Below, piece after piece: positions 41,160 through 59,200 of a stretch of 64,000 nt of DNA. Origin of the DNA: Myxococcota bacterium (lineage in GTDB: Bacteria > Myxococcota > B64-G9). The translations under genes and the position numbers were made by a program. Each line of letters opens with the position of its first letter. Position 1 is the first letter of the stretch. The stretch is taken from contig DATKYQ010000044.1 of the NCBI GenBank assembly GCA_035528415.1, positions 4,473 through 68,472 on the forward strand, given 5' to 3'. The notes beneath the pieces were generated by a model. That model saw only the letters and a program-made list of their open reading frames with translations. It ran no database searches and was not told the DNA's origin.

Positions 41160-43170
41160 TCTTTGCCAGCGCCGCCTGAAAATCCTTGATGGTCGCCGGC
41201 TTGGCTATGAAGTCATCCATTCCCGCCGCCAGGCAGCGCTCGCGGTCTTCTTCGAGCGAGTGGGCGGTCATGGCAATCATGTACACGTGGCGATCGCCGC
41301 CGGCTTCATGGCGGCGAATCTCTTTCGTGGCATCGAAGCCGTCGACGCCGGGCATCTGGCAATCCATGAAAATCGCGTCGTAATCTCCGCGCGCGGCCAT
41401 CTCGACCGCCTGCCGACCGTCGGCGGCCAGCTCGATCTCGCAGCCCAGCCTCCCGAGAATGGTCAGAGACACTTCCTGGCTGACGTCGTTGTCTTCCGCC
41501 ACCAGCACTTTCAACCCAGTTGGTACGCTTTTTTCGGTTCGCTCTTCCGGAACGGGCTCGTCTTCACACGGGGACTCGACTACAGAAAGATCCAGAACGA
41601 AGAAGAACTCCGAACCCTGCTCCGGCCGGCTTTTCACCGATAACTCACCGCCCATCATCAGGACGAGCTGCTTGCTGATGGCCAGGCCCAGTCCGCAACC
41701 CGCGTAGCGGCGCGAGGCCGATGAATCGACCTGGGTGAACTTGTCGAAGATGCCGTCGAGCTTCTCGCCGGGAATCCCGATTCCTGTGTCATGAACCGAG
41801 AAACGCAACCGGGCCATGTCTCCTTTTCGTCCCTCGCTCTCGACTGCCAGCCTGACCCGCCCGCGCTCGGTGAACTTCAGGGCATTGTCTACCAGGTTGA
41901 CCAGTACCCGTCTGATGCGTCCGGCGTCGCCGACGAGCCGGTGAGGCGCCAGGGGAGCATAGCGCATGGACAGATCGAGACCTTTCTCAATCGCCAAGGG
42001 CGATAGCATCTCGACAACGTCGGCCGTCAGCGCCCGCATATCCAGCGGGGCCGGATCGAGCGTCAGACGTCCCGCCTCGATCCTCGAGAAATCCAGAAGA
42101 TCGTTGATGACGTTCAAGAGCACCTCGGCCGAGCGCGTGATCGTCTCAACATAGCGCCTCTGCTTGTCATCGAGACCACCGTCATCGAGCAGCGAGGCGA
42201 CTCCGATGATGCCGGCCAAGGGAGTGCGAAGTTCGTGACCCATGTTGGCCAGGAACTCGCTCTTGGCCCGGTTGGCCGCCTCGGCATCTTCCTTGGCTGC
42301 CTGGAGAGCACTCAGGACCTTGCGGCGTTCGGTTACGTCGCGCGCGATCACCAGCACCGCCGGCCGGCCGCCGTGCTTGATGGCCGTATCGGAGATCTCG
42401 AGATCGCGCATCTGGCCGTTGCGATCTCTAAATCTCACCTCGGCCTTGTCCTGCCTGCGCTCACCCGAGAGAAGCGCGCTTACGCGGGCCAGGCTTCCTT
42501 GCTTCTCGTCTTCTCCAAGGTAATCTATGTAGTCGCTCTCGATCACCTCGGCCGGCCGCCTGCCCCCCATTTTCGCGAGGGCCCGGTTCAGGAAGATCAC
42601 CTTGCCGTCCTGCAGGATGGCCACCCCGTCGCTGGCCGCCTCGACCAGCGCCAGGTAAAGGGCCTCGGATTCCTCGCTGCGCACCAGCAGATCTCTCTGC
42701 GCCCGAACCTTTTGCGTGCGCAGGCGATGGATCTCGAAGACACGGTCCAGCAAGCGCAGGAGAGTACGGCTCTCGATCGGCTTGCGCAGGTAGTGAAAGG
42801 CGCCCTTCTCCATGGCCGCCACGGCCGAGTCGAGATCGGCATGCGCGGTCATGACGATGCATAAGCAATCTGGATGGCGCCCCTTGAACTCCGATAGAAA
42901 ATCGGTGCCCAGCCCGTCCGGCAGACGCAAGTCGATAAGCGCCACCTGGAATTCGCGCTTGGCTGCAATAGCTCGCGCCTCTGCACAGTTTCCGACGAAG
43001 GTTACCCGGCAGCCTTCCTTTTCCAGAATGTCAGCGAGCAACCCGCAAAGAGCCGCATCGTCGTCCACCACCAGGATGGTTCTTTCGTTCGAGTCCGCCA
43101 AACTCCCTCCAAAAAGCATCCTATCCACAAAACAGGACCCATTGATATGACACCCGCACACAGGAATCAA
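41137..43170 (-). CDS. Hybrid sensor histidine kinase: REC - PAS - HisKA - HATPase_c - REC
   Basis: N-terminal receiver (ILVVDDDAAL ... ALIDLRLPDGLG ... FHYLRKP); PAS-like middle; H-box ANMGHELRTPL; N, G1 and G2 boxes (DTGIGIP, GCGLGLAIS); C-terminal receiver (LVAEDNDVSQ ... IFMDCQMPGVDG ... IAKP); true start may be the internal ATG around 43122. Confidence 0.8.
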   Translation of the reverse strand: MIPVCGCHINGSCFVDRMLFGGSLADSNERTILVVDDDAALCGLLADILEKEGCRVTFVGNCAEARAIAAKREFQVALIDLRLPDGLGTDFLSEFKGRHPDCLCIVMTAHADLDSAVAAMEKGAFHYLRKPIESRTLLRLLDRVFEIHRLRTQKVRAQRDLLVRSEESEALYLALVEAASDGVAILQDGKVIFLNRALAKMGGRRPAEVIESDYIDYLGEDEKQGSLARVSALLSGERRQDKAEVRFRDRNGQMRDLEISDTAIKHGGRPAVLVIARDVTERRKVLSALQAAKEDAEAANRAKSEFLANMGHELRTPLAGIIGVASLLDDGGLDDKQRRYVETITRSAEVLLNVINDLLDFSRIEAGRLTLDPAPLDMRALTADVVEMLSPLAIEKGLDLSMRYAPLAPHRLVGDAGRIRRVLVNLVDNALKFTERGRVRLAVESEGRKGDMARLRFSVHDTGIGIPGEKLDGIFDKFTQVDSSASRRYAGCGLGLAISKQLVLMMGGELSVKSRPEQGSEFFFVLDLSVVESPCEDEPVPEERTEKSVPTGLKVLVAEDNDVSQEVSLTILGRLGCEIELAADGRQAVEMAARGDYDAIFMDCQMPGVDGFDATKEIRRHEAGGDRHVYMIAMTAHSLEEDRERCLAAGMDDFIAKPATIKDFQAALAKITGRRSS

Positions 43171-43221
43171 GCAACAGGTTTACCGATTGCCGCTTGCATG
43201 CCTGTCTGCTACGCTTCAACA

Positions 43222-44295
43222 ATGATTGCTGTTATCGATAGGCGGCCGAGATGGAAGCGCCTGATGGCTATAGTTCTCGGCGCTGTGGTCACACTGGCTC
43301 TTGTTTTCGCGGGAGTGCTGATGTTGATCGAATGGAAGCCCGGGCCAGTCGAGGACACGCCGGTATCCGGAGGCGGCGACCGGGCACTGAAGCCGCCTGT
43401 GTCGCTGGATCTATTGTCTTTCAACATAGGCTACGGAGGGCTTGGCCGGCAGGCCGACTTCTTCATGGACGGCGGCGAACAGGTGCGCCCTGAGCGGGAT
43501 GCCGTCGAGGCCAACCTCGCGGCCTTCGGGGATGTCTTGCGCTCTCATCCGGCCGACATCGTCTTGCTCCAGGAGGTCGACCGCGACTCCTCTCGAAGCT
43601 ACGGCATCGACCAGGCCGCGGCCCTGGCCGGCGTGCTGCCGGGCTTTGCCCGCTCGATGGCGCTCAACTTCAAGGTGCCCTGGATTCCCTACCCCGTGTT
43701 GCGCCCGCTGGGCAGGGTTGAAAGCGGCCTGCTCTCTTTGAGTCGCTACCCGTTAGGCTCGGCCAAGCGCTTACAACTTCCCGGCTACTACCCCTGGCCG
43801 GTGCGCGTCTTTCATCTCAAGCGCTGTCTGCACCTGTTACGCTTCCCGGCCCCGGACGGCAAGGACTGGGTGATAATCAACCTGCACCTGTCGGCTTTCG
43901 ACAAGGGCGGCCGCCTGCGGCAGGAGCAGATGGTCTACCTGAAGAAACTGGTTATGGATCTGACAGGCGCCGGGCATCACCTGATCGCCGGGGGCGATTG
44001 GAACCAGGCCTTTCCCGGGATCGACGGCGGCACTTTTGCGCACGGCGATCCCGTTCCAGGCTGGTTCCAGCAGATGGATCCAGCCTGGCTCCCAGCCGGC
44101 TTCCGGTGGGCCTACGACCGCATGCAACCCTCGCTGCGCGCCATCAACAAACCCTACACACCAGGCGAGAACTTCCTGACAATAGTAGACGGCTTCTTAG
44201 TCGGCCCCGGAATAGAAGTGCTCGAAGTACACACGACCAACCTCGGCTTTGCCAACAGCGACCACAACCCGGTGCTGCTGCGGGTGAGGCTCTAA
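43222..44295 (+). CDS. Endonuclease/exonuclease/phosphatase (EEP) family protein, N-terminally membrane-anchored
   Basis: TM MAIVLGAVVTLALVFAGVLMLI; EEP landmarks LLQEVD, NLHLSAFD, GDWN, SDHNPVLL. Confidence 0.7.
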   Translation: MIAVIDRRPRWKRLMAIVLGAVVTLALVFAGVLMLIEWKPGPVEDTPVSGGGDRALKPPVSLDLLSFNIGYGGLGRQADFFMDGGEQVRPERDAVEANLAAFGDVLRSHPADIVLLQEVDRDSSRSYGIDQAAALAGVLPGFARSMALNFKVPWIPYPVLRPLGRVESGLLSLSRYPLGSAKRLQLPGYYPWPVRVFHLKRCLHLLRFPAPDGKDWVIINLHLSAFDKGGRLRQEQMVYLKKLVMDLTGAGHHLIAGGDWNQAFPGIDGGTFAHGDPVPGWFQQMDPAWLPAGFRWAYDRMQPSLRAINKPYTPGENFLTIVDGFLVGPGIEVLEVHTTNLGFANSDHNPVLLRVRL

Positions 44296-45317
44296 TTTCC
44301 CGGCTCGATGATTACTTTTATAGACTCGTCGCCTTGTGCGACCAGGCGGAAGCCTTCCTGGATTTGAGACAGCGGCAGGCGGTGGGTGACCATCTCGGCG
44401 ACGGAAACCGTCCGGCCGGCTATCAGATCCAGGGCTTCCGCGCAGTCGGCGGGCGAGCCGGCGTAGGACGGGACAAGGGTTATCCCGTTTCGCCAGAAGT
44501 CGTTCACCGGAACGGGAAGATCCTGGCCCGGGGGCGGGGTGGCGAAGAAGAGAACGGTTCCTCCCCGGTCGACCGAAAGGATGGCCTGATTGAGGACAGG
44601 GATGGTCCCGGCGCAGACTATTACCACGTCGGCACCGCGGCCCTGGTTGATCTTGCGGATTTCCGCCGGCACGTCGTCGTCCCCGTGCAGAACCGCCGTG
44701 GCACCGAACTTCTCGGCCTGTTTCATGCGGTAGGTGTTGATGTCTGTTGCTATCACCTGCGAAACGCCTAGTGCACGCGCGAGCGCAATGTGCAAGATAC
44801 CCGAGATGCCGCTTCCCAGCACTGCAACCGTCTTGCCGGGCTTGACCCCGGCGATGCGCTGGCCGCGAAGCACGCAGGCCAGCGGCTCAATAAAAGTACC
44901 CTCCTCGAAGCTCATGCTGTCCGGCAGAATAAAAAGGCCGCGATCGACATTGATGGCCGGTACGCGGACGAACTCGGAAAAACCTCCGGGATCGAAGTTG
45001 GTGGTATGCAGTGTCTCGCAGACGGTGTGCTGCCCGCTCAAGCAGTAGCGACAGGTGTTGCAGGGCACATGGTGGCTGACAAATACGCGCTCTCTGACCT
45101 TGTAGCGTGAAACTCCCGGGCCGACTTTCTCTATTGTGCCCGCGATCTCATGGCCCAGCACAAGCGGCGCTTTCTTGATGCGGTACCACTCCATGACATC
45201 GCTTCCGCAGATGCCGCTGGCGGCAACCCGCACCAGGATTTCGCCCGGCCCGATTTCGGGAACGGGCCGTTCCTCGACGCGGCTGTCTGTGTTGTTGTGG
45301 TAGACGGCGACCTTCAT
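44292..45317 (-). CDS. Zn-dependent medium-chain alcohol dehydrogenase (sorbitol/threonine dehydrogenase-like)
   Basis: GICGSDV ... GHEIAGTIEKVG catalytic Zn site; structural Zn Cys cluster CNTCRYCLSGQHTVC; Rossmann VAVLGSGISG. Confidence 0.8.
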   Translation of the reverse strand: MKVAVYHNNTDSRVEERPVPEIGPGEILVRVAASGICGSDVMEWYRIKKAPLVLGHEIAGTIEKVGPGVSRYKVRERVFVSHHVPCNTCRYCLSGQHTVCETLHTTNFDPGGFSEFVRVPAINVDRGLFILPDSMSFEEGTFIEPLACVLRGQRIAGVKPGKTVAVLGSGISGILHIALARALGVSQVIATDINTYRMKQAEKFGATAVLHGDDDVPAEIRKINQGRGADVVIVCAGTIPVLNQAILSVDRGGTVLFFATPPPGQDLPVPVNDFWRNGITLVPSYAGSPADCAEALDLIAGRTVSVAEMVTHRLPLSQIQEGFRLVAQGDESIKVIIEPGN

Positions 45318-45322
45318 GAGCG

Positions 45323-46111
45323 CTACTTTTCAGACGCCTTCAGATCCTGGTACATCTCGTAGGCCTGTCCGGCCGGCAGGTTCTTGTGAACAACGGCGCG
45401 CACCGCCTTGATCATGGCCACCGGGGAATCTGACTGGAAGACGTTGCGGCCCATGTCCACCCCGGCGGCGCCGTCGCCCACGGCGTTGGCGGCCATTTCT
45501 AAAGCATCCTTCTCGGGCATCTTCTTGCCGCCGGCGATCACCACCGGAACCGGAGTGGCGGCAATGATTTTCGAAAAATTCTCGCAGTAGTATGTTTTCA
45601 CCATGTGGCTGCCGATCTCGACGGCCATCCGGCAACACAGCCCCAGATAGCGGGCATCCCGGGCCATCTCGCGGCCCACCGCGGTCACGGTCATGACGGG
45701 GATGCCGTACTTGTTGCCCCAGTCGGCGAGCTTGCCCAGGTTGATAAGCGTCTGGTGCTCGCCCGGTGTGCCGACGAAGATGGACAGGGTGATGCCGCAG
45801 ACATTGAGCCTGATTGCATCTTCAATGTCGCAGGTGAGGCCTTCGTTGGAAAGTTCTGTGAGAATGCTGTTGCCCCCCGAGACGCGCAACATGATCGGCA
45901 CGTCGCTGTCGGGGTCGACACAGATGCGCAGCATTCCCCTTGTGATCATCAGGGTGTCGGCGTACGGCAGTAAGGGGTCGATCGTGCTCTTGAGATCCCT
46001 AAGGCCGGTGGTGGGTCCCTGAAAGTAGCCGTGGTCCACGGCCAGCATGACGATCCGTCCGGTATCGGGTTTGATCATCCGCGCCATTCTGTTCTTCATT
46101 CCCCATTCCAT
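45323..46111 (-). CDS. Class I DhnA/LsrF-type aldolase (fructose-bisphosphate aldolase family)
   Basis: 262 aa; blocks IVMLAVDHGY, ITRGM, MLRVSGG, HMVKTYY resemble archaeal-type class I FBP aldolase / LsrF. Confidence 0.7.
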   Translation of the reverse strand: MEWGMKNRMARMIKPDTGRIVMLAVDHGYFQGPTTGLRDLKSTIDPLLPYADTLMITRGMLRICVDPDSDVPIMLRVSGGNSILTELSNEGLTCDIEDAIRLNVCGITLSIFVGTPGEHQTLINLGKLADWGNKYGIPVMTVTAVGREMARDARYLGLCCRMAVEIGSHMVKTYYCENFSKIIAATPVPVVIAGGKKMPEKDALEMAANAVGDGAAGVDMGRNVFQSDSPVAMIKAVRAVVHKNLPAGQAYEMYQDLKASEK

Positions 46112-46206
46112 GTTCTTCCTCCTTCATGGTTCGAGAGTGCAATCTTATGCAACGCAGTATGGAAGTCAAGCTGCTCAGCGAACGACGATCCGCCTCTCGT
46201 TGACAC

Positions 46207-46218
46207 CCCGATATCGGG
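46207..46218. promoter_or_regulatory. 12-bp perfect palindrome CCCGATATCGGG in the 190-bp gap upstream of the aldolase/ADH genes
   Basis: Perfect inverted repeat inside the only sizeable intergenic gap of the BMC region; candidate operator; function not demonstrable from sequence. Confidence 0.2.
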
Positions 46219-46302
46219 ACTTAGATTGTTCTACAGGAAAGACGGGAGGTCGCCATGGCTGGCATAAAAAACCATTCTGGCCTGCCCGAATTGCATCGCC
46301 CG

Positions 46303-47748
46303 TCAGTTCCCCTTCTGGCCGGCAGACTGGCCGGTGGCGATGGCCACCGAGGCCGAGGCGCCGATACGCGTGGCGCCGGCCGCCACCATGGCCTCGGCCG
46401 TCTGACGATCCTTGATGCCTCCCGAGGCCTTGACGCCCATCTCGGGCCCGACCGTCTCGCGCATCAGGGCAATGTCCTCGACTGTGGCCCCGCCCCCGCC
46501 GAAGCCGGTCGAGGTCTTTACGAAATTCGCCCCGGCCATCTTGGCCAGCAGGCAGGCCTTGACGATCTCCTCCTTGGCGAGCAGGGCGGTCTCGAGGATC
46601 ACCTTGACCAGCGCCTGGCCGCGGGAGGCGTTGACGACTCCCTCGATGTCCCGGCGCACCAGTTCGTCGTCACCCGATTTCAGGGCCCCGACGTTGATGA
46701 CCATGTCGATCTCTCTGGCCCCGTTGGCGATGGCGTCGCGTGTCTCCATGGCCTTGGACGTCGGTGTCGTCGCGCCCAGCGGAAAGCCGATCACTGTGCA
46801 AACCTTGACGTCGCTGCCGGCCAGCAACCGGGCGCACAAGGCCACCCGACCGGGATTGACGCACACCGAGGCGAAGTGGAACTGCCTGGCCTCGGCGCAC
46901 AATTTATGAAACTGATCTTCGGTGGCGTCCGGCTTGAGCAGGGTGTGATCGATCATGCGGCTGATGTCGCCTGAGACAGGCTGCGCCCCAATCGAGGATC
47001 CAACACGCGCGGCGCCGCCTTCTACCAGCTTGCTGACCGCCTCTGGGTTGTTCTCGATGCACAGCCCGCAAGAGCTGCACTCGCCGATGGTCGCCAGCGT
47101 GCAAGCCGGGTTGGGCTTTTGCTCGCCCGTAACGGGATCGACGATTGTTCCCGGGCCGGTCATTTTATCGACGTCGCACAGGCACACGCCCAGCGCCGCA
47201 AGCTGTTTCTCGATGTCGGCGATCTTTTGCCTGACGGCGGCCGGCGCCGCGGCCGGCTCGATCTCGGCGGCAAACAGCGAGTCACGCGCGGCCACCACCG
47301 TGATTCCGCGCATCAGTCCATAGATTGCCAAGATGCAAACCAGGCTGTCGGGCAGCATGGTCAGCAGCTTCGAAGCTGCGTTGAGCGACATGTTCGGCAG
47401 GTAGATTACACCGACGCCGTCGAGCAACTTCCAGACGTCGCCCTCGGTGAGAACCTCGGCTTCGGGGGCGGCCCGGCGTACGGCCGGCACGCCGACAATC
47501 TTCTGCGCCGAGGAAGAGAGAACCACCTTGCAGTCCTCGCAGCAGTCGCAGATCTTGCCTACTTGCGAAAGCGCCTCTGTGAGCCTGCGGTTGCCGCCGG
47601 TGAGCAGGACCAGCACGCGTTTGCCCTTGGGCGTCGCGGGCGGTATCCAGCCGCTGTCCATTCTCTTCTCGCCTTCCGTGGACGGGGACGGCCCCAGCCG
47701 TTTGATCACTTCCGCGGATATCCTGCGAACCAGATCGTCGGAATCCAT
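46303..47748 (-). CDS. deoC: Fusion protein: N-terminal Cys-rich domain of unknown function with putative encapsulation peptide + C-terminal deoxyribose-phosphate aldolase
   Basis: C-terminal half has DERA landmarks ([28 protein letters not shown] with Schiff-base Lys, VKASGGI); N-terminal 250 aa start with the amphipathic [15 protein letters not shown] and contain CDCCEDC and CSSCGLC. Confidence 0.8.
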
Positions 47749-47889: not shown

Positions 47890-48177
47890 TTACTTGCCGG
47901 CGGTCTTGGGCAGGATGCCTTCCACGTCGCCGTGCGGACGCGGGATGACATGCACCGACACCAACTCGCCGACCTTCTTGGCCGCCACCGCGCCGGCTTC
48001 CACCGCGGCCTTGACCGCGCCGACGTCGCCGCGCACCATGACGGTCACGAACCCGCCGCCGATGAACTCCTTGCCTACCAGGGACACCTTAGCTGCCTTG
48101 ACCATTGCGTCGGCCGCCTCGATTGCGCCCACCAAGCCTTTGGTCTCGATCATTCCCAGCGCTTCTTTCGACTCCAC
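47890..48177 (-). CDS. BMC shell hexamer protein (BMC-H, PduA/EutM/CcmK family)
   Basis: 95 aa; GTG start; canonical Pfam00936 sequence [26 protein letters not shown] ... VHVIPRPH. Confidence 0.95.
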
Positions 48178-48199: not shown

Positions 48200-48502
48200 T
48201 TAGGGATTCCAGATCTTCACACGGCCGCCGGGTTCTTCCTCGACGGCCAACTCATCCACGTATCCAACTATGGTCGCATCCACCGGGGGCTTGTCGCCTA
48301 AAGCGATGGCCGCGTCCCTCTTCATGACCAGGTAAACCACATCGCCGGGCCCGGCGCAACGAATCCCGTCGACTGCGACGAACGCTTCGCCCGAGGGCCG
48401 CAGGTTTTGGTCGAGCCCCTGAACGACCAGAAGCCTGAGACCCTCGAGTTCGGGGTCCTTGATCGTCGCCACTACGCGCCCGATGACTTTTCCCAAGCGC
48501 AT
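48200..48502 (-). CDS. BMC vertex pentamer protein (BMC-P, EutN/PduN/CcmL family), copy 1
   Basis: 100 aa from ATG 48502: [28 protein letters not shown] ... [10 protein letters not shown]; the track ORF start at 48712 overlaps rpiB and is rejected. Confidence 0.9.
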
Positions 48503-48509
48503 ACCTTGC

Positions 48510-48977
48510 CTACCCTTCCCGAACGCGATTCTCGACCGCGGTGATCTTGTCGAGCCTTTGCTGGTGCCGTCCACCGGCATAGTCGGTCTCAAGCCAGAGC
48601 TTGGCCAGATCCTTGGCCAGGCCCGGGCCGAGAACTTGTCCGCCCAGGCAGAGCACGTTGGCGTCGTTGTGCACCCGGCTGCTCTTGACACCGAAGGCAT
48701 CGTATCCGGCAATCGCCCTGATACCCGGCAGCTTGTTGGCCACGATGGCGCTGGCCTGCCCTATGCCGTCAATCATGATGCCCCGGCAATCCGCGGAAAC
48801 CCGCGAAGCTCCGGCCACGGCCTGCGCCACCAAAAAGGCGAAATCGGGATAATCGCAAGCATCCTTCCCGTGACAGCCGAAGTCGCGCACCTCGTGCCCA
48901 AGTTCCACCAGAAATGTCTTCAGCGACTCTTTCAGTTGGTAGCCACCGTGGTCGCTGCCGATAAAAATCTTCATCAC
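48510..48977 (-). CDS. rpiB: Ribose-5-phosphate isomerase B (RpiB/LacAB family)
   Basis: MMKIFIGSDHGGYQLKESL ... GIMIDGIGQASAIVANK ... NDANVLCLGG landmarks; 155 aa. Confidence 0.9.
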   Translation of the reverse strand: MMKIFIGSDHGGYQLKESLKTFLVELGHEVRDFGCHGKDACDYPDFAFLVAQAVAGASRVSADCRGIMIDGIGQASAIVANKLPGIRAIAGYDAFGVKSSRVHNDANVLCLGGQVLGPGLAKDLAKLWLETDYAGGRHQQRLDKITAVENRVREG

Positions 48978-49843
48978 GCCTTCTCCCGGGCCGTAATGGC
49001 GATGATTTCACTCAACGCTTCGGGATTCAAGCCCGCTCCTCCCACCAGGAAACCGTCGCAGTCCGGCATTCGCGCAAGATCCCCGGCGCTGCCGACACCG
49101 ACGCTGCCCCCGTAGAGCAGGCGCGACCGTTCGGCCCAGGCATGTGAAAACAACTCGCCCAACCTGTCGCGGATGAAAACCAGGGCCTCCTGGACCTGGG
49201 AGGGCGAGGCGACCAGTCCGCTGCCGATGGCCCAGATCGGCTCGTAGGCCACTACGATCTCCTGCGGATCGGGTGCCGGCTGCCCCAGCCCGGAAAGCGC
49301 CAGCGTGAGCTGGGCGCGCAGCACGCGGAAGGTCGCGCCCCGCTCGCGCTCTTCAAGCCGCTCGCCGACGCACAGAACAGGAGTCAGGCCTGCGGACAGC
49401 GCGGCGAGCAGCTTGCGGCGCACCAGTTCGTCGTCCTCGCCGGCCGCCCGGCGCTCGGAATGTCCCACGATCACGTAGCTCGCGCCGGCATCCTTTATCA
49501 TCTCGGCGCTGTGCTCCCCTGTATGCGCGCCGGAGTGTTCCGGGTGCAGATCCTGGGCGCCCAGGCTGACATGCGTGCCGTTGGAGAGCGCGCCGCGCAA
49601 CACCGGCAGCAGCACCAGCGGCGGGCACAACAGCGTGTCCACTCCGCTGTCCGCGTGAGGATTCAGTTTGGCCGCGTAGCGCCGCGCGTCCTCGGCCAGC
49701 AAGTTCATTTTCCAGTTGGCGGCGATCAGCGGCCGGCGACCGCCGCTGGCGGATAACCGATGTATATCTGCATCGCCCGCGGCCATGGTCTCGTAGACCA
49801 CCTGGCGCACCACCCGTTCCACTCTGTCCCGCAGGTCGCTCAC
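48974..49843 (-). CDS. tpiA: Triosephosphate isomerase with N-terminal extension of about 30 aa (candidate encapsulation peptide)
   Basis: IAANWKMN, VIVGHSERR, AYEPIWAIGSG, GGSV TIM landmarks; GTG at 49843 (GGGGAGGG RBS 9 nt upstream; overlaps the upstream BMC-P stop as GTGA) gives MSDLRDRVERVVRQVVYETMAAGDADIHRLSASGGRRPL before the IAANWKMN core; alternative start is the internal ATG around 49786. Confidence 0.8.
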   Translation of the reverse strand: MSDLRDRVERVVRQVVYETMAAGDADIHRLSASGGRRPLIAANWKMNLLAEDARRYAAKLNPHADSGVDTLLCPPLVLLPVLRGALSNGTHVSLGAQDLHPEHSGAHTGEHSAEMIKDAGASYVIVGHSERRAAGEDDELVRRKLLAALSAGLTPVLCVGERLEERERGATFRVLRAQLTLALSGLGQPAPDPQEIVVAYEPIWAIGSGLVASPSQVQEALVFIRDRLGELFSHAWAERSRLLYGGSVGVGSAGDLARMPDCDGFLVGGAGLNPEALSEIIAITAREKA

Positions 49844-50157
49844 TTGTGTGCACCCTCCCCGGCCGGCGCCTCGAGCGCCAGGCGTTCGCCGCGCACCCGG
49901 ACCTGATCGATCACCCCAACGATGATCGCTTCGCAAGGCGCGCTATCGCTGCCGAGCACCTGCCGGGCGCTCTTGCCTTCCTCGACCACCAGGACGTAGT
50001 CACCAACGCCCGCCTGGGCGGCGTCGATGGCGATAAAAGCAGGATCGGTCTGCCGCCCCTTGCTGTCGATCGGGCCGACGAACATCAGCTTACAGCCGAC
50101 ATGATCCGGATGCTTGACTGTCGCAACCAGCGACCCGATGACCCTCGCGATTTTCAA
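49840..50157 (-). CDS. BMC vertex pentamer protein (BMC-P), copy 2
   Basis: 105 aa: MKIARVIGSLVATVKHPDHVGCKLMFVG ... AIIVGVIDQV. Confidence 0.9.
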   Translation of the reverse strand: MKIARVIGSLVATVKHPDHVGCKLMFVGPIDSKGRQTDPAFIAIDAAQAGVGDYVLVVEEGKSARQVLGSDSAPCEAIIVGVIDQVRVRGERLALEAPAGEGAHK

Positions 50158-50186: not shown

Positions 50187-50750
50187 TCACAACAACTTCG
50201 CAACCAGGTCGGGATGCGGGGCCGGGATCACGGTCGTAGCCAACAGCAAGCCGTGATCGCGGGCCGCACGCTGTCCGGCCTCGACGGCCGCCCTGACGGC
50301 GGATACCTCGCCGGTCAGCAGCACATAGCCCTTGCCTCCCAGTGCCCGGGCCAGACGGATCTCGAGCAAGTCGACCCGGGCGCTCTTGACCGCCTGGTCG
50401 CCGGCGATGATCGCCGCAGCCAGCGAAAAAGTCTCGATCACTCCCAGGGCGGCGATGCCGGCCGGCACGGTCGTAGCGCTGAAGGCATCGAGTACCTGCG
50501 GATGAACGTTGGGAATGACGATCTCGTCCACTAAGCTGTCTCTGGCCTCGGTCTTCCCGGCCGCGACCGCGGCCTGCGTATCGGCCACCGCTCCACCGAT
50601 GATTGTCAGGTACTTGCCCGGGCAGACCGGGCTGGAAAACAGCAGACGCACCCGGGCGGCCTTGAGCATGGCATCAGCCGCCCGGATTCCCGTGACCACG
50701 CTGCTGGTCTCGACACAACCAATCGCCTGCTCATTTTTTTTCTCGACCAC
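50187..50750 (-). CDS. BMC tandem-domain shell protein (BMC-T, PduT-like)
   Basis: 187 aa with two BMC domains (AIGCVETSSVVTGIRAADAMLKAARV and ALGVIETFSLAAAIIAGDQAVKSARV). Confidence 0.85.
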   Translation of the reverse strand: MVEKKNEQAIGCVETSSVVTGIRAADAMLKAARVRLLFSSPVCPGKYLTIIGGAVADTQAAVAAGKTEARDSLVDEIVIPNVHPQVLDAFSATTVPAGIAALGVIETFSLAAAIIAGDQAVKSARVDLLEIRLARALGGKGYVLLTGEVSAVRAAVEAGQRAARDHGLLLATTVIPAPHPDLVAKLL

Positions 50751-50753
50751 GGT

Positions 50754-52106
50754 TTACTCCACGTCGATGGTGACGGCCGTCGGACTGACTTCGGCCACCC
50801 GTCCGGCAAGGCCGGTGTGTACGCATGCGCCCAGAGCGTCCCCGGGGACCTCTCCCAACAGCTCTCCGGCCGCTACATTCTGGCCGGCTTCTACCACGGC
50901 CTGTGCCGGCTGGCCGGCATGTTGCTTCAACGGTATGGTCAGGCGCGTCAGCTCGATTTCAAATGCAGCCCGGGGCGCCGGGCGATCGTAGGCGTCTAGG
51001 CCCAGGCGGGCAATCAGGCGTTTGGAAGGCACCCTGCGTAACGGACTGAATTCGCGTTCCGCCGATGTCACCGCCGGCTGCGGGCGAGGCATCCCGGCTT
51101 CCGTAAGTCGCCCTACAAACTCTTTGTTCATGGCGCACGGGTCGAGATTCATCACACAACCATAGGCCGTACATAACCCGCAGCCTGAGCAGAGAAAGGC
51201 CCCCGTGTAAGCCTGCAGATCCTCGCTCACGCTCGCGGCCAGGTTACGCATCAGTCGGTCGGGATAGAGCCGGTGGCCAAGCAAGTTGCGCGGGCAAATT
51301 TCGGTGCACAGCATGCACTTCAGACAAGCCGAGCGCGCCAGGTGAATTTGGCGCTCGACTGTCCGCCGTCGACGTGTGACCTGCGGGTGATCCGCGGGAA
51401 GCACGAGCATAAGGCTTGTGGTCTTGGTTACTACTGAGGAACTCTCGTCCACGATCGAACCCATCATCGGCCCGCCGGAAATGACTACTGCCGATTCGCA
51501 GGCTGCTCCCCCGGCCGCTTCCAGCAGAGCCGACAAGGGAGTTCCAAGCGGCACGCGGAAGGTGGCCGGGCTCCCGACCGCGCCCGCCAGGCTGACGTAG
51601 CGGTGCGTGACAGGCTGCCGGCCGTCGACGGCCGCGGCCACATCGATCAGGGTAGAGACATTCGACACCACGGCGCCCACCGCGAGCGGCAGGCCGAACT
51701 CGGGAATTACACGATCGAGCACCTCGCGTACCAGCACAAACTCGTCCCCGGCCGGGTAAAAGTCATCCAGCAGGCGCAACTCAATCTTCTCGCCAATATT
51801 GCCGAGTTTGATTGCCTCGCCGAGCGCATCGATCGCTGGGGCGTATTTTTTCTTGAGCGCCACGATCCCGCGCCGGGCACCGGTGATCTCCATGGCGATC
51901 TGCAGCCCGCGCAGCACCTCGCGGGGCTTCGAGGCCATGCGCTGCTGGTCGACCCGCGCCAGCGGCTCACACTCGGCCCCGTTACCGATGACTACCTCCA
52001 CCTGCGCTGCATACTTGACATGGGTGGGGAAACCCCCGCCTCCGGCGCCGACCACGCCGGCCGTGCGAATTCTTTCGAGCCACTCTTTTACAGAACCATG
52101 GACCAA
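50754..52106 (-). CDS. PduS-like RnfC/NuoF-family Fe-S flavoprotein (BMC-associated oxidoreductase)
   Basis: GAGGGGFPTHVK nucleotide-binding N-terminus; SLBB-like region; two 4Fe-4S motifs CLKCMLCTEICP and CSGCGLCTAYGC; 450 aa. Confidence 0.8.
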   Translation of the reverse strand: MVHGSVKEWLERIRTAGVVGAGGGGFPTHVKYAAQVEVVIGNGAECEPLARVDQQRMASKPREVLRGLQIAMEITGARRGIVALKKKYAPAIDALGEAIKLGNIGEKIELRLLDDFYPAGDEFVLVREVLDRVIPEFGLPLAVGAVVSNVSTLIDVAAAVDGRQPVTHRYVSLAGAVGSPATFRVPLGTPLSALLEAAGGAACESAVVISGGPMMGSIVDESSSVVTKTTSLMLVLPADHPQVTRRRRTVERQIHLARSACLKCMLCTEICPRNLLGHRLYPDRLMRNLAASVSEDLQAYTGAFLCSGCGLCTAYGCVMNLDPCAMNKEFVGRLTEAGMPRPQPAVTSAEREFSPLRRVPSKRLIARLGLDAYDRPAPRAAFEIELTRLTIPLKQHAGQPAQAVVEAGQNVAAGELLGEVPGDALGACVHTGLAGRVAEVSPTAVTIDVE

Positions 52107-52117
52107 GCCAGCTCCTC

Positions 52118-53587
52118 TCAGACGATCCTGAAGGCCCCGGCCAGCACGCAGCGGCGCTGCCTGGTGAACGTGCGCGCCGAGGTCAGGCCCTCGCCGGTGG
52201 GGCCGGCGATGCTCAGCGTGGTAAAACCCTCGCCGCCGAATCCCAGCCCGGCGTAGGAGGGAGCGTTCTTGACGAAGATGGTGGTCTCGATCTCGCGGGC
52301 CACCAGGCTCATGTTGCTGACGCTCTCCGAGTGCATCATTGCCGAGTGCCGGTTGCCATGCTCGGCCTGCTTGGCCTTGGCAAGCGCAGTGGTGAGATCG
52401 GGCACTGCAACGATCGGCAGGATAGGCATCAGCATCTCGGCCTGCACCAGGGGATGCTCGAAGGGCACCCGGCAGATCACCAGGCGCGTATCGGGACCGG
52501 CCGTGAGGCCGATCTGATCCAGCAAGACCGAGGCGTCTTTGCCGACGAACTTCTTGTTGGGGTGCGGGTGAGGCCGGCCGGGCTCGACCAGCACCGAGGT
52601 GATCTTATCGACATCGTCGCCCGAGATCAGACGCGCTCCATAGGTAATCATCTCATCGATCAACCTGTCGGCGACGTTTTCTAAAACCAGCACCTCTTTC
52701 TCGGCCGTGCACAGGACGTTGTTGTCGAACGATGCCCCGTCGACGATACAGCGGGCGGCCTTGCGGATATCGGCGGTGTCGTCGACGATAACCGGCGGGT
52801 TTCCCGGTCCGGCCGCGACCGCCTTCTTGCCGCAGGTCATGGCCAGCCTGACCACCTCGCCCCCACCGGTGACCATCAATAACCGGATGCCGGGATGCAT
52901 CATGATCGCCTGCGATGTCTCCAGGCTGGGCTGGGCGATAGAACACAGCAGCGTCTCGGGACCGCCGGCAGCATGGATGGCCTTGTTCAGAAGACTCACG
53001 GCCTCGTTGCTCACCCCCTTGGCCAGCGGGTGAGGATTGAAGACCACCGCGTTGCCGGCCGCCACCATCGAGATGCCGTTGTTGATCACGGTGGCCACCG
53101 GGTTTGTGCAAGGGGTAACGGCGGCGACGACACCGTAGGGCGCCGGCTCAACAAGCGTCAAGCCGTCGTCGCCCGTGTAACACATCGGCGTCAGGTCTTC
53201 CACTCCCGGTGTCTTGCGGGCCGCCAGCAGGTTCTTCTGCACCTTGTGCTCGGCGCGCCCGAAACCCGTCTCGGCCACAGTCTTGCGCGCCAGGTCCTCG
53301 GCCATCTCGATGCCCGCCTGCCGCATAGCCTTGATGAACACCCGGCGGCGTTCGAGAGACACGCCCGAGAATGCCTGGTAGGCGGCCCCGGCGGCGGCGA
53401 TGGCCTCTTCCATCGTCTCGAAGACGCCATTCGCAGTTGACCCGCCATTTTGCGCGCCGGCCCGCGGCTCGCAAATAAGTGACCGCGGACGTGGTTCTGC
53501 AACAGGCTGCGAATCGCCGTTCGTCACTCGCCTGACGATCTCGGTCACCAGCCGCTCGATCTCTTTTTCGTTCACCGGAATGGTCAT
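52118..53587 (-). CDS. CoA-acylating aldehyde dehydrogenase (PduP/EutE family) with N-terminal encapsulation peptide
   Basis: N-terminal amphipathic EKEIERLVTEIVRRV; ALDH superfamily body with catalytic Cys region NNVLCTAEKE; 489 aa. Confidence 0.9.
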   Translation of the reverse strand: MTIPVNEKEIERLVTEIVRRVTNGDSQPVAEPRPRSLICEPRAGAQNGGSTANGVFETMEEAIAAAGAAYQAFSGVSLERRRVFIKAMRQAGIEMAEDLARKTVAETGFGRAEHKVQKNLLAARKTPGVEDLTPMCYTGDDGLTLVEPAPYGVVAAVTPCTNPVATVINNGISMVAAGNAVVFNPHPLAKGVSNEAVSLLNKAIHAAGGPETLLCSIAQPSLETSQAIMMHPGIRLLMVTGGGEVVRLAMTCGKKAVAAGPGNPPVIVDDTADIRKAARCIVDGASFDNNVLCTAEKEVLVLENVADRLIDEMITYGARLISGDDVDKITSVLVEPGRPHPHPNKKFVGKDASVLLDQIGLTAGPDTRLVICRVPFEHPLVQAEMLMPILPIVAVPDLTTALAKAKQAEHGNRHSAMMHSESVSNMSLVAREIETTIFVKNAPSYAGLGFGGEGFTTLSIAGPTGEGLTSARTFTRQRRCVLAGAFRIV

Positions 53588-53600
53588 GAACTCAACCTCG

Positions 53601-53891
53601 TTACTTGGCGAAAGTCTGCCGCCCGCCGATGTCGATAAAATCTACTATGGCCACAATGGTCGCGTCGACCGGCGAATCATGGGTGGTGTCGGTCAGCCTC
53701 GACGATGAGCCCTGAACCACCAGCACTATCTCGTCCTCGCCGGCCCCGACTGAATCCACGGCTACCAGTTGTTTGCCGCTGGCTTCCTGTTTCTCGAAAT
53801 CGACCGGATCGACGACCAGCAGCTTGGTTCCGGAAAGCTTCTCGGATTTCCGTGTGCTGACTACGTTTCCTACAACTCGCGCAAGAAACAT
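53601..53891 (-). CDS. BMC vertex pentamer protein (BMC-P), copy 3
   Basis: 96 aa: MFLARVVGNVVSTRKSEKLSGTKLLVVD ... ATIVAIVDFI. Confidence 0.9.
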   Translation of the reverse strand: MFLARVVGNVVSTRKSEKLSGTKLLVVDPVDFEKQEASGKQLVAVDSVGAGEDEIVLVVQGSSSRLTDTTHDSPVDATIVAIVDFIDIGGRQTFAK

Positions 53892-53935: not shown

Positions 53936-54703
53936 TCACACATCCAGCTTGACGATCTCAATGCCGAGATCGCGCGCCCGGCTTTCCGCCATAGGCGTCA
54001 CGATGGTGCCCGCGGGCAGCGTAAGTTGGCGTTCACCCGCCCGCGCCAGTTGTTCTACGTCGTCCTCCGTCACAAGCCCGTCGAAAGAGCGGGCCCGCGT
54101 GGTACCGGACGTCCCGATGTGTTCGATCAGCCCCGCTATATCGGCCGCGGCTACAGGCTGCAACCCCAGCGTGTCCAGGTCACGCAAAATGCTTGCGGCC
54201 TCGGCCCCCGTCTGACCCCGTGCGCCCAACCCGGACGGTCGCAGATCGTCCGTGACCAGGGCCACGCGCCGCCCGGCCAGAAGAGCCTGACTGACCAGCC
54301 TGACGAAGGGCTGCCCATCGCGCCTGTCAATCAGCGCCCGGGCGTGCTCGAAGCCGATACTGCCCACCAGCACCAGGTCATCGCGGCCGATCTCGCCAAG
54401 CGCATAGCTTAAGTCCGCCTCCGAAAAAGCGGAGATATCGCCGCCCAACTTCCCGCGCAAGCCCCCGCTATCGATGTCGCCGAGCAGGGCTGACTCACAG
54501 AGTACCCTCACGCGCGCGCCGCCTGCGACCAGGGGTGCCAGTTGGTCTGCCAGGATCCCGAGGTTTGCCGAGGCCACTGGCAACACCACGAGGATTCGCG
54601 GTGCGTGGCCCGCTGGGGGCAAACTCGCGGGGGACCCCAAGCGCGCCAGAACACGTCCGGTGATTTCCTCAATCAGGCGCTCGATTTCCTTGTCGTCTGC
54701 CAT
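53936..54703 (-). CDS. BMC-associated protein of unknown function with N-terminal encapsulation peptide
   Basis: N-terminus MADDKEIERLIEEITGRVLARL nearly repeats the aldehyde dehydrogenase EP (KEIERL); 255 aa; C-terminal TEDDVEQLARAGERQLTLPAGTIVTPMAESRARDLGIEIV block; no confident family assignment. Confidence 0.6.
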   Translation of the reverse strand: MADDKEIERLIEEITGRVLARLGSPASLPPAGHAPRILVVLPVASANLGILADQLAPLVAGGARVRVLCESALLGDIDSGGLRGKLGGDISAFSEADLSYALGEIGRDDLVLVGSIGFEHARALIDRRDGQPFVRLVSQALLAGRRVALVTDDLRPSGLGARGQTGAEAASILRDLDTLGLQPVAAADIAGLIEHIGTSGTTRARSFDGLVTEDDVEQLARAGERQLTLPAGTIVTPMAESRARDLGIEIVKLDV

Positions 54704-54720: not shown

Positions 54721-55413
54721 TTACCGAATCGTCACACCGCCGGCCGTGTAATCACAGAAGGGACGCGTGTTGCCACCCTCGGTGCTCTGGGAGGCAAGGC
54801 ATCCCTCGCGGCCGCACAGGTCAAGGCACAGGCTTGGGACAACCTCGACCCGGCTGCCTGCTACGACTCCCGCCGCGTTGCCCTCATCGGTGTCCAGGTG
54901 CAACTCGGTCAGAAATTTGTCGCTCACCCGCACGACGATTTCATCGAAGATCAGCGAGCGCGGCCCCGGAAAGTGAACATACACCTTCTGGCCGTTTGTT
55001 ACTCCGAGCCTGCGGGCGTCCTGCGGTGTCGCGTGGATGTGGCGCACGGCGCAGATGCAGCCCGAGTTCAGCCGAACCGCCCCGCGGGGTCCAATCAGAT
55101 CGGCGCCCGGTGTGCCCGCCAGGTCGCCGGACAGGCGCACGGGCACGTTTATACCCAAGGCAACCCCGTCGCTTACCGACAACTCCACCTGGCTCGCGCC
55201 GCGGGGAGGGCCGAGAATTCGCACCCCGGGAATCGAGCGCCGCGGTCCGACGACCTCCAGCGTCTCGCGCGCGGCATACTGGCCCGGCTGGGACAAGGCG
55301 GACACAGGGGTCAGGCGGTAGCCGTGCCCGAAAAGCTCTTCCACATGCCGATCAGACAGGTGAACGTGCCGGGCCGAGAGGGCGACCGGGATGGTGCGAT
55401 CTCCGTTTTCCAT
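54721..55413 (-). CDS. pduL: Phosphotransacylase PduL (phosphate propanoyl/acetyltransferase)
   Basis: Two PduL-type repeats with metal-binding His motifs: SARHVHLSDRHVEELFG and ICAVRHIHATPQDARRLGV; 230 aa. Confidence 0.85.
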   Translation of the reverse strand: MENGDRTIPVALSARHVHLSDRHVEELFGHGYRLTPVSALSQPGQYAARETLEVVGPRRSIPGVRILGPPRGASQVELSVSDGVALGINVPVRLSGDLAGTPGADLIGPRGAVRLNSGCICAVRHIHATPQDARRLGVTNGQKVYVHFPGPRSLIFDEIVVRVSDKFLTELHLDTDEGNAAGVVAGSRVEVVPSLCLDLCGREGCLASQSTEGGNTRPFCDYTAGGVTIR

Positions 55414-56033: not shown

Positions 56034-56251
56034 GTCTTCCTCCTCCGAGGTTTTTGTACCCCGTCCATACGGGACACCAAGAACTTCATCCCGTATAACC
56101 GGGCAATCTATATCCACGACAAGTCGCCACAGTATCCCTCCCCGGAACGAATTTCAAGTATGTTCTTTCCGTCATCGAGAAACTGCGGACTTGAACGAAA
56201 CCGCCTTTCCCCCTAGTGTTATATGGAACAGAAAAAAGGGGAGACGATCTC

Positions 56252-59200
56252 ATGATCACAGAGAAACCAGGCAGGCTATCTTTGTCCCGCGCTTTCTTGC
56301 TGCCGGCGCTTGCCGGCCTGTTGTTGTCGGCCTGCGGCTCGGACAAGGCAGGCTCGAAGTGCGGCGACTGCTCCACGCTCGACGGGCCCTGCAGCCAGGG
56401 AGCCTGCAACGAAGACACCCGCGAGTGCTTCGCCGATGCGATTAACGAGGGCACCGACTGCAGTGACGGCGACAAGTGTACACTCGACGACAGCTGTCAG
56501 GCCGGGCAGTGTGTGGGCACGCCCATGGAGTGCACCGAGCAGGTGTCCGAGTGCGTGGCCGGTGTGTGTGACAAGGGCGAGTGCACATACCCAGCTCGGC
56601 CGGACGGCACGGCCTGCATCAGCAAGACAGATGAGTGCAACGACGGCCAGTGCCTGGCCGGCGAGTGCAGCGCCGTTGTGAAAGCCGACCAGACACCCTG
56701 CAACGACGGCGACTGGTGTACCACCCCCGACAGTTGCGCAGCCGGCGTCTGCGATGGTACGGCACGCAACTGCTCGGACGGTCTCGACTGCACCAGCGAC
56801 TCGTGCGACCCGGATCGTAACGCCTGCGGCTACCAGGTGGCCGCAGACAACTGCCTGATCGCCGGCAACTGTTTCGCGGACGGTGACCCCAACCCGGACA
56901 ATTCCTGCCAGGAATGCGCTGCCGCCATGAACCAACAGGACTGGTTCAACGATGACAGCAACGCCTGCGATGACGGCAACCTGTGCACGGATCCGGATGG
57001 GTGCACGGACGGGGTATGCTCGGGAACGCCCGTTTCCGGCTGCTGCCTTGCCGACGGCGATTGCGGCGACGGCAAGGACTGCACTACTGATGTCTGCAAC
57101 ACGGCGGACGGCACCTGCACGAACGGCGTCGATGCCGGATATTGTCTGATCGGCGACCTGTGCGTTACCGACGGCACCCTCAACCCGGCCAATGCCTGCC
57201 AGTCCTGTATCGCTGTGACAAACCAGACCGGCTGGGCGGACAACAATGATCCCTGCGACGACGGATTGTACTGCACAACGGACGACCATTGCGGCGGCGG
57301 ATCGTGCCAGGGCACCAGCGGCACGATCTGCGATGACGGCGTAGACTGTACCGACGATGTCTGCAACGAATCGGCCCAGAGTTGTTCTCATGCGCCCTCT
57401 GCCGGCCAGTGCCTGATCGGCGGCACCTGCTTCGCGGCGGGAGCACTCAACCCGAACAACGACTGCCAAGAGTGTATTCCGGCAGGCAGCCAGACAGACT
57501 GGAGCGCCGACGACAGCAACACCTGCGACGACGGAAACAACTGCACCGACTCCGACCACTGCAGCGCAGGCACCTGCACCGGAACGCCCATTCCCAACTG
57601 TTGCACCAGCGACGCGGAATGTAACGACAACCTGGATTGCACCAGCGACAGCTGCACGCTGGCCACAGGCGCCTGCACAAACTCCGTCAATGCCGGCCAG
57701 TGCCTGATCGCGGGCGCCTGCTACGCCAACGGAATTCCCAACCCCAACAACAACTGCCAGGCCTGCGCGGCAGGCACTGTCCAGGACACCTGGTCGCCGG
57801 CCAACGAAGGCGCCGAGTGCGGCGGGATCTGCCAGGCATGCCAGGGTGGAACATGCGCAAACATGCCCGACACGGGCGACGCCGATCCCTTCGGCGAATG
57901 CCCGCCCTGCCGCGTGTGCGACGGGTCCGGCGGCTGTCGTAACGCCCAAAACGGCACCGACCCCAAGAACGACTGCCAGGCGGCCGAGTGCGTCTTCGAC
58001 GTTTGCCAGGCAGGCTCCTGCAACATGACATCGGGCACGCAGTGTACCGACAGCGACCAAGGCGACTGCAACGACGCCCAGTGCAATAGCCTGGGCACTT
58101 GCCTGCAGGACTTCGCCTACGAGGCATCCGGCTACGCCTGCGATGACGCAGACGCCTGTACCACTCCAGATCAGTGCGACACGTTGGGACAGTGCGCGGG
58201 CGCTGCACTGGCGCCCGATCCCGATCCCGATTCGGTTGTTTCGGCAACCAGCGCCTGCCTGACCTACTCCACGAACTCCCGCACGGTAGTCAGCGTCGCC
58301 CTGAACGACACGGGCGGAACCCCGATCGGCGCCGCCACGGTGACCATCGAGGCCGACGACGCAGGCATCAGCTGGAGCGGCCCGGTCGTAGAATCGGCCG
58401 TTGCGCCGGGAGTCTACTTCCGCGTCATGCAAACCCCGGCGGCGCAGATTCCGGGCGACGACACCGTGGTATCGGTAAGCGCGCATTCGGGGTCTGGCGC
58501 CTGTCAGTCTTCCGAGGAAGCAATGAACACGACCGCAACTATCGTCTTCGCCGCGCAGACCGCGGCGGGAGCCGCGGCCGGCACCGGCGGCTGCCCGATC
58601 GACAACAATCTCAGGGTGCGCGTCATTGACGCCCGCGATTCGAGCCCCATAGCCGGCGCCTACGTCATGGTGGGCCTCGCCCCTGGCGACGTTTTCGAAG
58701 ACGACTTCGAGCAAGTCCTTTCGGGCGCGGCCAGCCTGACAAACGCCGGGCGGGCCGATACCGGCGGGATGATTGAGTTCGAGGACCAGGGCACGGCCCT
58801 GGATGGGCCGCAGATTGTAACAGCCGGTTTCGACAACATGAGTTACACGAGCATGGTCGACGTCGACGCGGCCGACATCGTCATCTCGCTGACCCCTATT
58901 AGCGCCATCCCGGCCATGGCGAAGATCGCGGGCTCGGTGACCGGGTTGCCGATCGTAAGCTACGACGACATCGTCAATGCGGCCATGGTTATCAACCAGT
59001 TCAATATGGACAGCCTGGTCAAGTTCAGGTTCGACGATCTGCTGGCCCAGGAGGAAGACTGCTGGCTGGCGGCCTCCATCTTTCTGCTGGGCGACCAGTG
59101 GGCGTCCATGCCGGCCAACATCGACGTTCCCCAGCAAACCGAGAGATATATCTTTCCCGTGACTATCAACCCGCACTTCTACCAAACCGTCCCGCTCGAG

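Follow-up and report, generated by a model that had tools for sequence, protein, structure and literature searches.

Why does the gene for a central glycolytic enzyme stand among the shell-protein genes of a bacterial microcompartment (BMC), and does its product carry a peptide that could take it inside the shell? The question is raised by a triosephosphate isomerase (TPI) gene in a 64,000-nucleotide stretch of contig DATKYQ010000044.1 from a Myxococcota bacterium (assembly GCA_035528415.1, forward-strand positions 4,473 to 68,472), referred to below as the window, in whose numbering all positions are given. The gene sits inside a sugar-phosphate utilisation (SPU; DNA-sugar) microcompartment locus, and its product begins with a conserved, predicted amphipathic helix that is a well-supported candidate for an encapsulation peptide (EP). 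We propose that a catalytically competent TPI, translated from a GTG start and carrying an EP of ~21 residues and a flexible linker of ~16 residues, would be targeted to the lumen of the SPU microcompartment, where it would take part in the lumenal pathway. To this account as a whole we assign a probability of roughly 0.8.

Gene structure and identity of the extended TPI

The gene and its product are divided into the following elements.

48974..49843, minus strand: TPI coding sequence, 289 aa, GTG start, TGA stop at 48974-48976 (by translation)
49853..49860, minus strand: Shine-Dalgarno-like sequence GGGGAGGG, nine nucleotides 5' of the TPI GTG (read from the sequence)
49781..49840, minus strand: predicted amphipathic helix, residues 2-21 (SDLRDRVERVVRQVVYETMA), putative EP (helix in the AlphaFold2 (AF2) model, predicted local distance difference test (pLDDT) ~80-83)
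49733..49780, minus strand: linker, residues 22-37, ending in GGRR, poorly conserved, with the non-conserved region next to Met20 (AF2 pLDDT 63-76)
48977..49732, minus strand: TIM-barrel catalytic domain, residues 38-289 (AF2 pLDDT >90, alternating beta/alpha elements from residue 39)

Translation of 48974-49843 on the minus strand, which the original prediction had not specified, gives 289 codons and a stop, and a protein whose N-terminus reads VSDLRDRVERVVRQVVYETMAAGDADIHRLSASGGRRPLIAANWKMN. The GTG start codon (49843-49841) is directly overlapped by the gene before it, as the TGA of the open reading frame for a pentameric BMC-P shell protein (49840-50157) runs into it to form GTGA. The original prediction had described a GTG start with a ribosome-binding site and this overlap, and both are present as described. 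At its other end the gene is equally tightly packed, its stop codon overlapping the start of rpiB (48510-48977). Of the seven loci whose TPI start codon was read, six use GTG, and purine-rich motifs lie 5' of the extended start in most of the related loci L001, L003, L004, L086 and L087. A scan for promoters and terminators returned counts at chance level.

By its residues, the gene product is a normal, active-looking TPI that appears catalytically competent. Pfam TIM (PF00121) matches residues 38-282 with E=6e-77 (258.9 bits against a cut-off of 20.1), and its TIGR00419 score of 162.8 bits exceeds the cut-off of 130.6. The residues of catalysis, N43, K45, H128 and E201, are invariant throughout an alignment of 75 sequences, as are the phosphate-binding loops 199-AYEPxWAIG-207 (V/I at 203), YGGS (244-247) and G264/G268. 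The AF2 model built from the same alignment has a mean pLDDT of 92.2 and a predicted template modelling score of 0.87. Over the full domain the protein is 45-51% identical to bona fide TPIs, and solved TPIs align end to end with its barrel. Housekeeping TpiA enzymes (E. coli 1TRE, T. maritima 1B9B) share its fold, its catalytic residues and this level of identity over residues 36-283, but they have no N-terminal extension, and their genes stand among glycolytic genes and not beside those for shell proteins. One database entry, HUU01873.1 (locus L090), comes from a Myxococcota metagenome-assembled genome (MAG), falls in the same 90% cluster, is annotated as triose-phosphate isomerase at the full 289 aa and differs from the window TPI at the start residue only. 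The 64-kb window encodes no second TPI.

The N-terminal helix as a candidate encapsulation peptide

The TIM domain of the window TPI starts at residue 38, and the first residue of its NWK motif is residue 43. In housekeeping TPIs this motif lies only 5-11 residues from the start, compared with 27-57 in the extended clade of the homologue list, and all solved TPI structures align to the window TPI only from residue 35/36 onward. From these observations we count ~34 extra N-terminal residues, with an upper bound of 37. The extension anticipated in the original prediction is therefore real, and its estimated length of about 30 residues was close, if slightly short.

An AlphaFold prediction of the N-terminus had been proposed as a check, and the model places a helix at residues 2-21 with the confidence listed above. 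The first 18-mer has a helical hydrophobic moment of 0.575, the highest in the protein. Averaged over 53 homologues, the moment reaches 0.61 at 90 degrees and 0.48 at 100 degrees, compared with 0.28 in shuffled sequences, and it drops at non-helical angles; the hydrophobic periodicity first noticed in the single sequence is seen across the clade. Hydrophobic residues occupy positions 4, 8, 11, 12, 15 and 16 in 82-100% of the sequences and position 19 in 73%, while polar residues occupy positions 5, 6, 9, 13, 14 and 18 in 80-98%. We rejected a signal peptide or membrane anchor, as the helix is highly charged and has a mean hydrophobicity of -0.45.

A database search places the window TPI in a distinct clade of ~55-65 proteins of 282-315 aa, which are 42-100% identical to it. 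Its members open with the start motif M-x-[DE]-L-R-D-R-V-E-R-V-V-R-Q-V-V-x-E, which a variable linker connects to RRPL[VI]AANWKMN; lower in the homologue list stand ordinary TPIs of 246-258 aa, in which the start motif is absent. The helix, shared by ~55 homologues at 42-90% identity, is under purifying selection, and its conservation comes close to that of the catalytic core. Among 56 sequences the mean fraction of the most frequent residue reaches 0.62 over residues 3-18 and 0.68 over the catalytic domain but only 0.28 over residues 19-35, and in comparisons with two relatives (90% and 82% identity) the ratio of nonsynonymous to synonymous change (pN/pS) is 0.16 and 0.24 for helix codons 2-21, against 0.17 and 0.19 for the core. 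The linker, in contrast, differs in length among homologues, as the varying distance of NWK from the start indicates.

Some members of the clade are annotated without the helix. Homologues P0041 and P0049 are called short, yet a helix is encoded in frame directly upstream of each called start; the upstream helix regions lie at 5896-6000 of locus L088 for P0041 (an MBI-type NCBI MAG annotation) and at 5869-6000 of locus L089 for P0049 (JGI). Start miscalls of this kind hide EPs in public annotations, in line with the report that automated annotation often clips such extensions (Dwyer 2024, PMC11585597).

The helix is similar in sequence to the N-termini of three proteins encoded with it, the aldehyde dehydrogenase (AldDh; EKEIERLVTEIV), the deoxyribose-phosphate aldolase DERA and a 255-aa eut_hyp-like protein (DKEIERLIEEIT), and in relatives to the C-terminal end of a class II aldolase as well. 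When 300 composition-matched shuffles were scored for each locus, no more than one equalled the observed similarity in four of the five loci compared. The extension thus has the features expected of an EP, being an amphipathic helix restricted to BMC-associated TPIs, joined by a poorly conserved linker to an enzyme encoded in a BMC locus and similar to the peptides of co-encoded cargo. In the EP literature (Fan 2010, Aussignargues 2015, as cited in PMC12747264), canonical EPs of the PduP, PduD, EutC and EutE type are likewise terminal amphipathic helices of ~18-20 aa with a poorly conserved linker, borne by BMC-locus enzymes and absent from their non-BMC homologues; they differ in that they are experimentally necessary and sufficient for targeting, whereas the TPI peptide is predicted only. 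Taken together, the extension, its predicted helix, its conservation, the constant place of the gene in the ten related SPU loci examined and the likeness to cargo peptides provide good computational support for the TPI helix as an EP and for the enzyme as a candidate for encapsulation, as the original prediction had proposed.

Three other readings of the gene have to be weighed against this one. Translation might begin at the internal ATG of codon 20 (Met20, 49786-49784), the alternative start that the original prediction had named as a refutation, which would leave an ordinary cytosolic TPI behind an untranslated spacer, and gene callers have indeed shortened several homologues (P0041, P0049 and others). 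We consider this start extremely improbable: the Met20 column holds 34% Leu and otherwise a mixture of residues in homologues, codons 2-21 are as constrained as those of the core, and the shortened homologues retain the helix in frame upstream. Even from Met20 the catalytic N43 would lie 23 residues in, compared with 5-11 in housekeeping TPIs, and no start codon occurs between Met20 and the core of the window TPI. The protein might, alternatively, be a TPI-fold paralogue with another substrate, as its distinct clade, its ~50% identity to housekeeping TPIs and its failure to reach the thresholds of several NCBIfam PRK-type TPI equivalogs could indicate. This too is very unlikely in view of the TIGR00419 match, the invariance of every catalytic and phosphate-binding residue, including the loop-6 and loop-7 motifs, and the level of identity to bona fide TPIs across the full domain. 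A somewhat less remote alternative, which we nonetheless regard as unlikely, accepts that the extension is translated but gives it a role other than shell targeting, such as higher-order oligomerisation, regulation of TPI, or binding of a cytosolic partner or of the outer shell surface. Amphipathic helices are generic interaction modules, encapsulation is a prediction, and other presumed lumenal enzymes (the phosphotransacylase and RpiB) carry no such peptide; yet the motif is common to the N-termini of AldDh and DERA and to the class II aldolase C-terminus in the same loci, the extension is confined to TPIs within BMC loci, and in other BMC types these very positions hold experimentally validated EPs, according to the literature cited in PMC12747264.

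Several observations weigh against the encapsulation account. The shuffle test of the hydrophobic moment on the window sequence by itself was marginal (1227 of 20000 shuffles, p ~0.06), and in one of the five loci, L004, the similarity between the TPI helix and cargo peptides was no better than in shuffles. The phosphotransacylase, RpiB and PduS-like proteins of the locus have no such peptides, so cargo status in this locus does not simply follow from bearing an EP. Full-text searches of the literature found no experiment showing encapsulation of any native SPU TPI, and the direction and purpose of a lumenal TPI reaction rest on general enzymology.

The sugar-phosphate utilisation locus and its relatives

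The genes around TPI are all on the minus strand and, in order of transcription, are as follows.

54721..55413, minus strand: PduL-type phosphotransacylase (PTAC), without an N-terminal EP (PF06130 E=8e-71; NF011652 246.3 bits)
53936..54703, minus strand: 255-aa protein with an EP-like N-terminal helix (DDKEIERLIEEITGRVLARL) and weak eut_hyp similarity (TIGR02536 E=2.3e-4, below cut-off)
53601..53891, minus strand: BMC-P gene (PF03319 E=2e-30)
52118..53587, minus strand: CoA-acylating aldehyde dehydrogenase (AldDh) with an EP-like N-terminal helix (NEKEIERLVTEIVRRV) (NF011927 651.8 bits)
50754..52106, minus strand: PduS/RnfC-like flavin and Fe-S oxidoreductase (PF01512, PF13534, PF13375, PF10531)
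50187..50750, minus strand: BMC-T tandem-domain shell protein (PF00936 in two stretches, E=2e-46)
49840..50157, minus strand: BMC-P (EutN/CcmL) pentamer gene, directly upstream of TPI (PF03319 E=1.6e-25)
48974..49843, minus strand: TPI, as above
48510..48977, minus strand: RpiB (ribose-5-phosphate isomerase B), N-terminus MMKIFIGSDHGG, no terminal extension (PF02502 E=2e-45; TIGR01120 147.7 bits against 138.65)
48200..48502, minus strand: third BMC-P gene (PF03319 E=1.2e-19)
47890..48177, minus strand: BMC-H hexamer shell protein (PF00936 E=9e-29)
46303..47748, minus strand: DERA (deoxyribose-phosphate aldolase), the signature enzyme, with an EP-like N-terminal helix and an extra domain of ~250 aa (TIGR00126 279.9 bits, residues 262-470)

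DERA, an isomerase of ribose-5-phosphate (RPI; pfam02502) and an aldehyde dehydrogenase are thus encoded together with shell genes, the combination by which SPU loci are recognised. Each of the ten related loci examined keeps the order BMC-P, TPI, RpiB, even where TPI identity falls to 42%, and the wider order is also the same wherever the fetched stretch reaches, with PTAC to BMC-T upstream (sometimes including BMC-H) and BMC-P, BMC-H and DERA downstream. Overlapping or abutting tpi and rpiB genes are found in 10 of 11 loci. Translation of the window RpiB may in fact begin with the ATG at 48974 and not with the GTG at 48977, and the RpiB proteins of this lineage (154-168 aa) have neither an EP nor a long linker, unlike the SPU RPIs described in Dwyer 2024. 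The window PTAC has a C-terminal tail of ~40 aa that contains Cys, and C-x(14-17)-[RQ]P[FY]C spacing occurs in all five loci compared (the window and L002-L005). The 255-aa protein has no Pfam match, and its similarity to eut_hyp (TIGR02536) amounts to 20.9 bits against a cut-off of 152.6.

Association of TPI with such loci has been described before. TPI is one of the two enzymes that gave the SPU loci their name (Axen et al. 2014, PMC4207490), and the SPU4 subtype comprises AldDh, RPI, DERA, PTAC, a pfam00121 TPI and an EP-bearing protein of the eut_hyp type, with N-terminal EPs on about half of its TPIs (Sutter 2021, PMC8217296, Supplementary Data 2). An N-terminal EP was found to be predictable for the SPU4 TPI, and the conversion of glyceraldehyde-3-phosphate (GAP) to dihydroxyacetone phosphate (DHAP) was drawn inside the shell (Dwyer 2024, PMC11585597). 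Since encapsulated TPI was predicted in both of these studies, the idea is not new, and the original prediction overstated how unusual a lumenal TPI would be: TPI has been known in SPU loci since 2014, and EPs on SPU4 TPIs since 2021. The papers found that place TPI in a shell use engineered SpyTag loading of the E. coli enzyme.

The enzyme set of the window fits SPU4, although subtype membership is not clean. The window shares with SPU4 the AldDh, DERA (pfam01791), RPI (pfam02502), PTAC and pfam00121 TPI, the BMC-P triplet, the optional pair of PduS and BMC-T(s), and EP-like N-termini on AldDh, DERA and TPI; its 255-aa protein with an EP-like N-terminus may correspond to the eut_hyp/flavoprotein-like protein of SPU4, to whose family model it is weakly similar. 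It differs in its host, a member of the Myxococcota, as SPU4 has been described mostly from Firmicutes and from a single deltaproteobacterial member; in its PTAC, which starts MENGDRTIPVALS and leaves no room for an N-terminal EP, whereas the literature reports EPs on SPU PTACs; and in its single BMC-H gene, where SPU4 has two similar ones and relatives have two or three. Relatives also display an SPU5 feature, a class II aldolase with a C-terminal EP. A 2025 preprint (bioRxiv 10.1101/2025.11.08.687404, PMC12747264) presents Myxococcota SPU loci that contain TPI and class II aldolase as the donors from which Hodarchaeales received their type II archaeal microcompartments. Like those Myxococcota loci, the window encodes TPI, a Flav+DERA protein, AldDh, PTAC, a DUF protein, RPI and a nearby acetate kinase; it differs from them in having no class II aldolase, none being found anywhere in the 64 kb.

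Genes flanking the shell and enzyme genes extend the metabolic context. Directly downstream of DERA, after a gap of only 190 bp (46112-46302), lies a gene for an LsrF-like 3-hydroxy-5-phosphonooxypentane-2,4-dione thiolase (45323-46111, minus strand; NF006081 398.7 bits against 297), followed by a gene for a Zn-dependent dehydrogenase (44292-45317, minus strand); both proteins lack terminal extensions. DHAP and acetyl-CoA, which the LsrF reaction releases, belong to the classes of product that the BMC pathway also generates. This gene pair is also found near the locus in L086 (82% identity) and is absent from more distant loci. In L086 (region 13541-15478) a class II aldolase (PF00596) with an EP-like C-terminal tail (EQLVETITRAVIEEISKT) is encoded, and between DERA and the LsrF-like gene there are a NifU_N gene and a molybdenum oxidoreductase gene on the opposite strand.

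Beyond the dehydrogenase, the window encodes on the plus strand a protein of the PF03372 endonuclease/exonuclease/phosphatase family with a hydrophobic N-terminal segment (43147-44295). It flanks the SPU locus, is also present in L001, L086, L088 and L089, and is a candidate nuclease or phosphatase for feeding DNA breakdown products to the pathway. An acetate kinase (39903-41159, plus strand; PF00871 E=6.5e-145) is encoded a few kilobases away from the locus and could carry acetyl-phosphate on to acetate with the formation of ATP; adjoining it is a gene for a 677-aa hybrid histidine kinase/response regulator (41137-43170, minus strand) that may regulate the locus. On the other side, the locus is adjoined by a gene for a repetitive 1310-aa protein rich in Cys and Asp, with a lipoprotein-like N-terminus (56216-60148, plus strand), and a 1298-aa gene product occurs at the same position in L086 and L087. 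NCBIfam gave no match for this Cys-rich protein or for a 219-aa protein beside the locus.

A proposed role for TPI in the lumen

On the encapsulation account, synthesis of TPI would begin at the GTG at 49843 and be translationally coupled to both neighbours, the BMC-P gene upstream and rpiB downstream, and during assembly the peptide would direct the TPI dimer into the SPU microcompartment, to its lumen or cargo core. There DERA would cleave 2-deoxyribose-5-phosphate to acetaldehyde and GAP, and AldDh and PTAC would convert the acetaldehyde to acetyl-CoA and then to acetyl-phosphate. TPI would equilibrate GAP with DHAP, most likely lowering the lumenal concentration of GAP. The DERA equilibrium favours condensation and that of TPI favours DHAP; a lumenal TPI should therefore lower GAP and pull the cleavage reaction forward, with the ketose-phosphate passing to the cytosol. 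Conversion to DHAP would also take a second reactive aldehyde out of the environment of AldDh.

The same enzyme could in principle work mainly in the other direction, turning DHAP into GAP on behalf of DHAP-releasing enzymes, whether an EP-tagged class II aldolase (FucA/DrdA-type, PF00596) or the LsrF-like thiolase. PF00596 enzymes are DHAP-dependent aldolases, relatives encode one with a C-terminal EP directly after DERA, and the thiolase at 45323-46111 belongs to a family whose reaction releases DHAP. For this window, however, such a direction is less likely because no class II aldolase is encoded in it; the LsrF-like protein also has no terminal extension, the conserved signature enzyme DERA makes GAP, and the TPI equilibrium lies towards DHAP. 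We therefore hold net flux from DHAP to GAP to be improbable, although not to the degree of an internal start or a change of substrate. A different extension of the encapsulation account concerns which enzymes of the lineage bear the helix: TPI, AldDh, DERA, the eut_hyp-like protein and, in relatives, the class II aldolase do, whereas RpiB, PTAC and the PduS-like protein do not. Because RpiB has no EP and tpi and rpiB overlap or abut in nearly all loci, a TPI dimer equipped with the EP might serve as an adaptor and bring RpiB into the lumen as part of a sugar-phosphate isomerase module; or TPI might be thermodynamically needed for DERA in a compartment that retains acetaldehyde. Both are speculative ideas to which we give little weight, and no test of either was found in the literature searched.

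If native encapsulation of TPI as proposed here is true, a central glycolytic enzyme would be routinely packaged in one of the most widespread types of metabolosome, and the standard model of these organelles, in which a signature enzyme works with AldDh, PTAC and an alcohol dehydrogenase (AlcDH), would extend to the handling of a co-product that is not the aldehyde. The concept has already been published as a prediction, and the window locus adds a clean and well-conserved example from Myxococcota. In practical terms, the clade is a warning that gene callers often clip the targeting peptide, and residues 2-21 of this TPI offer a short candidate tag that could be used to load cargo into SPU or HO-like shells.

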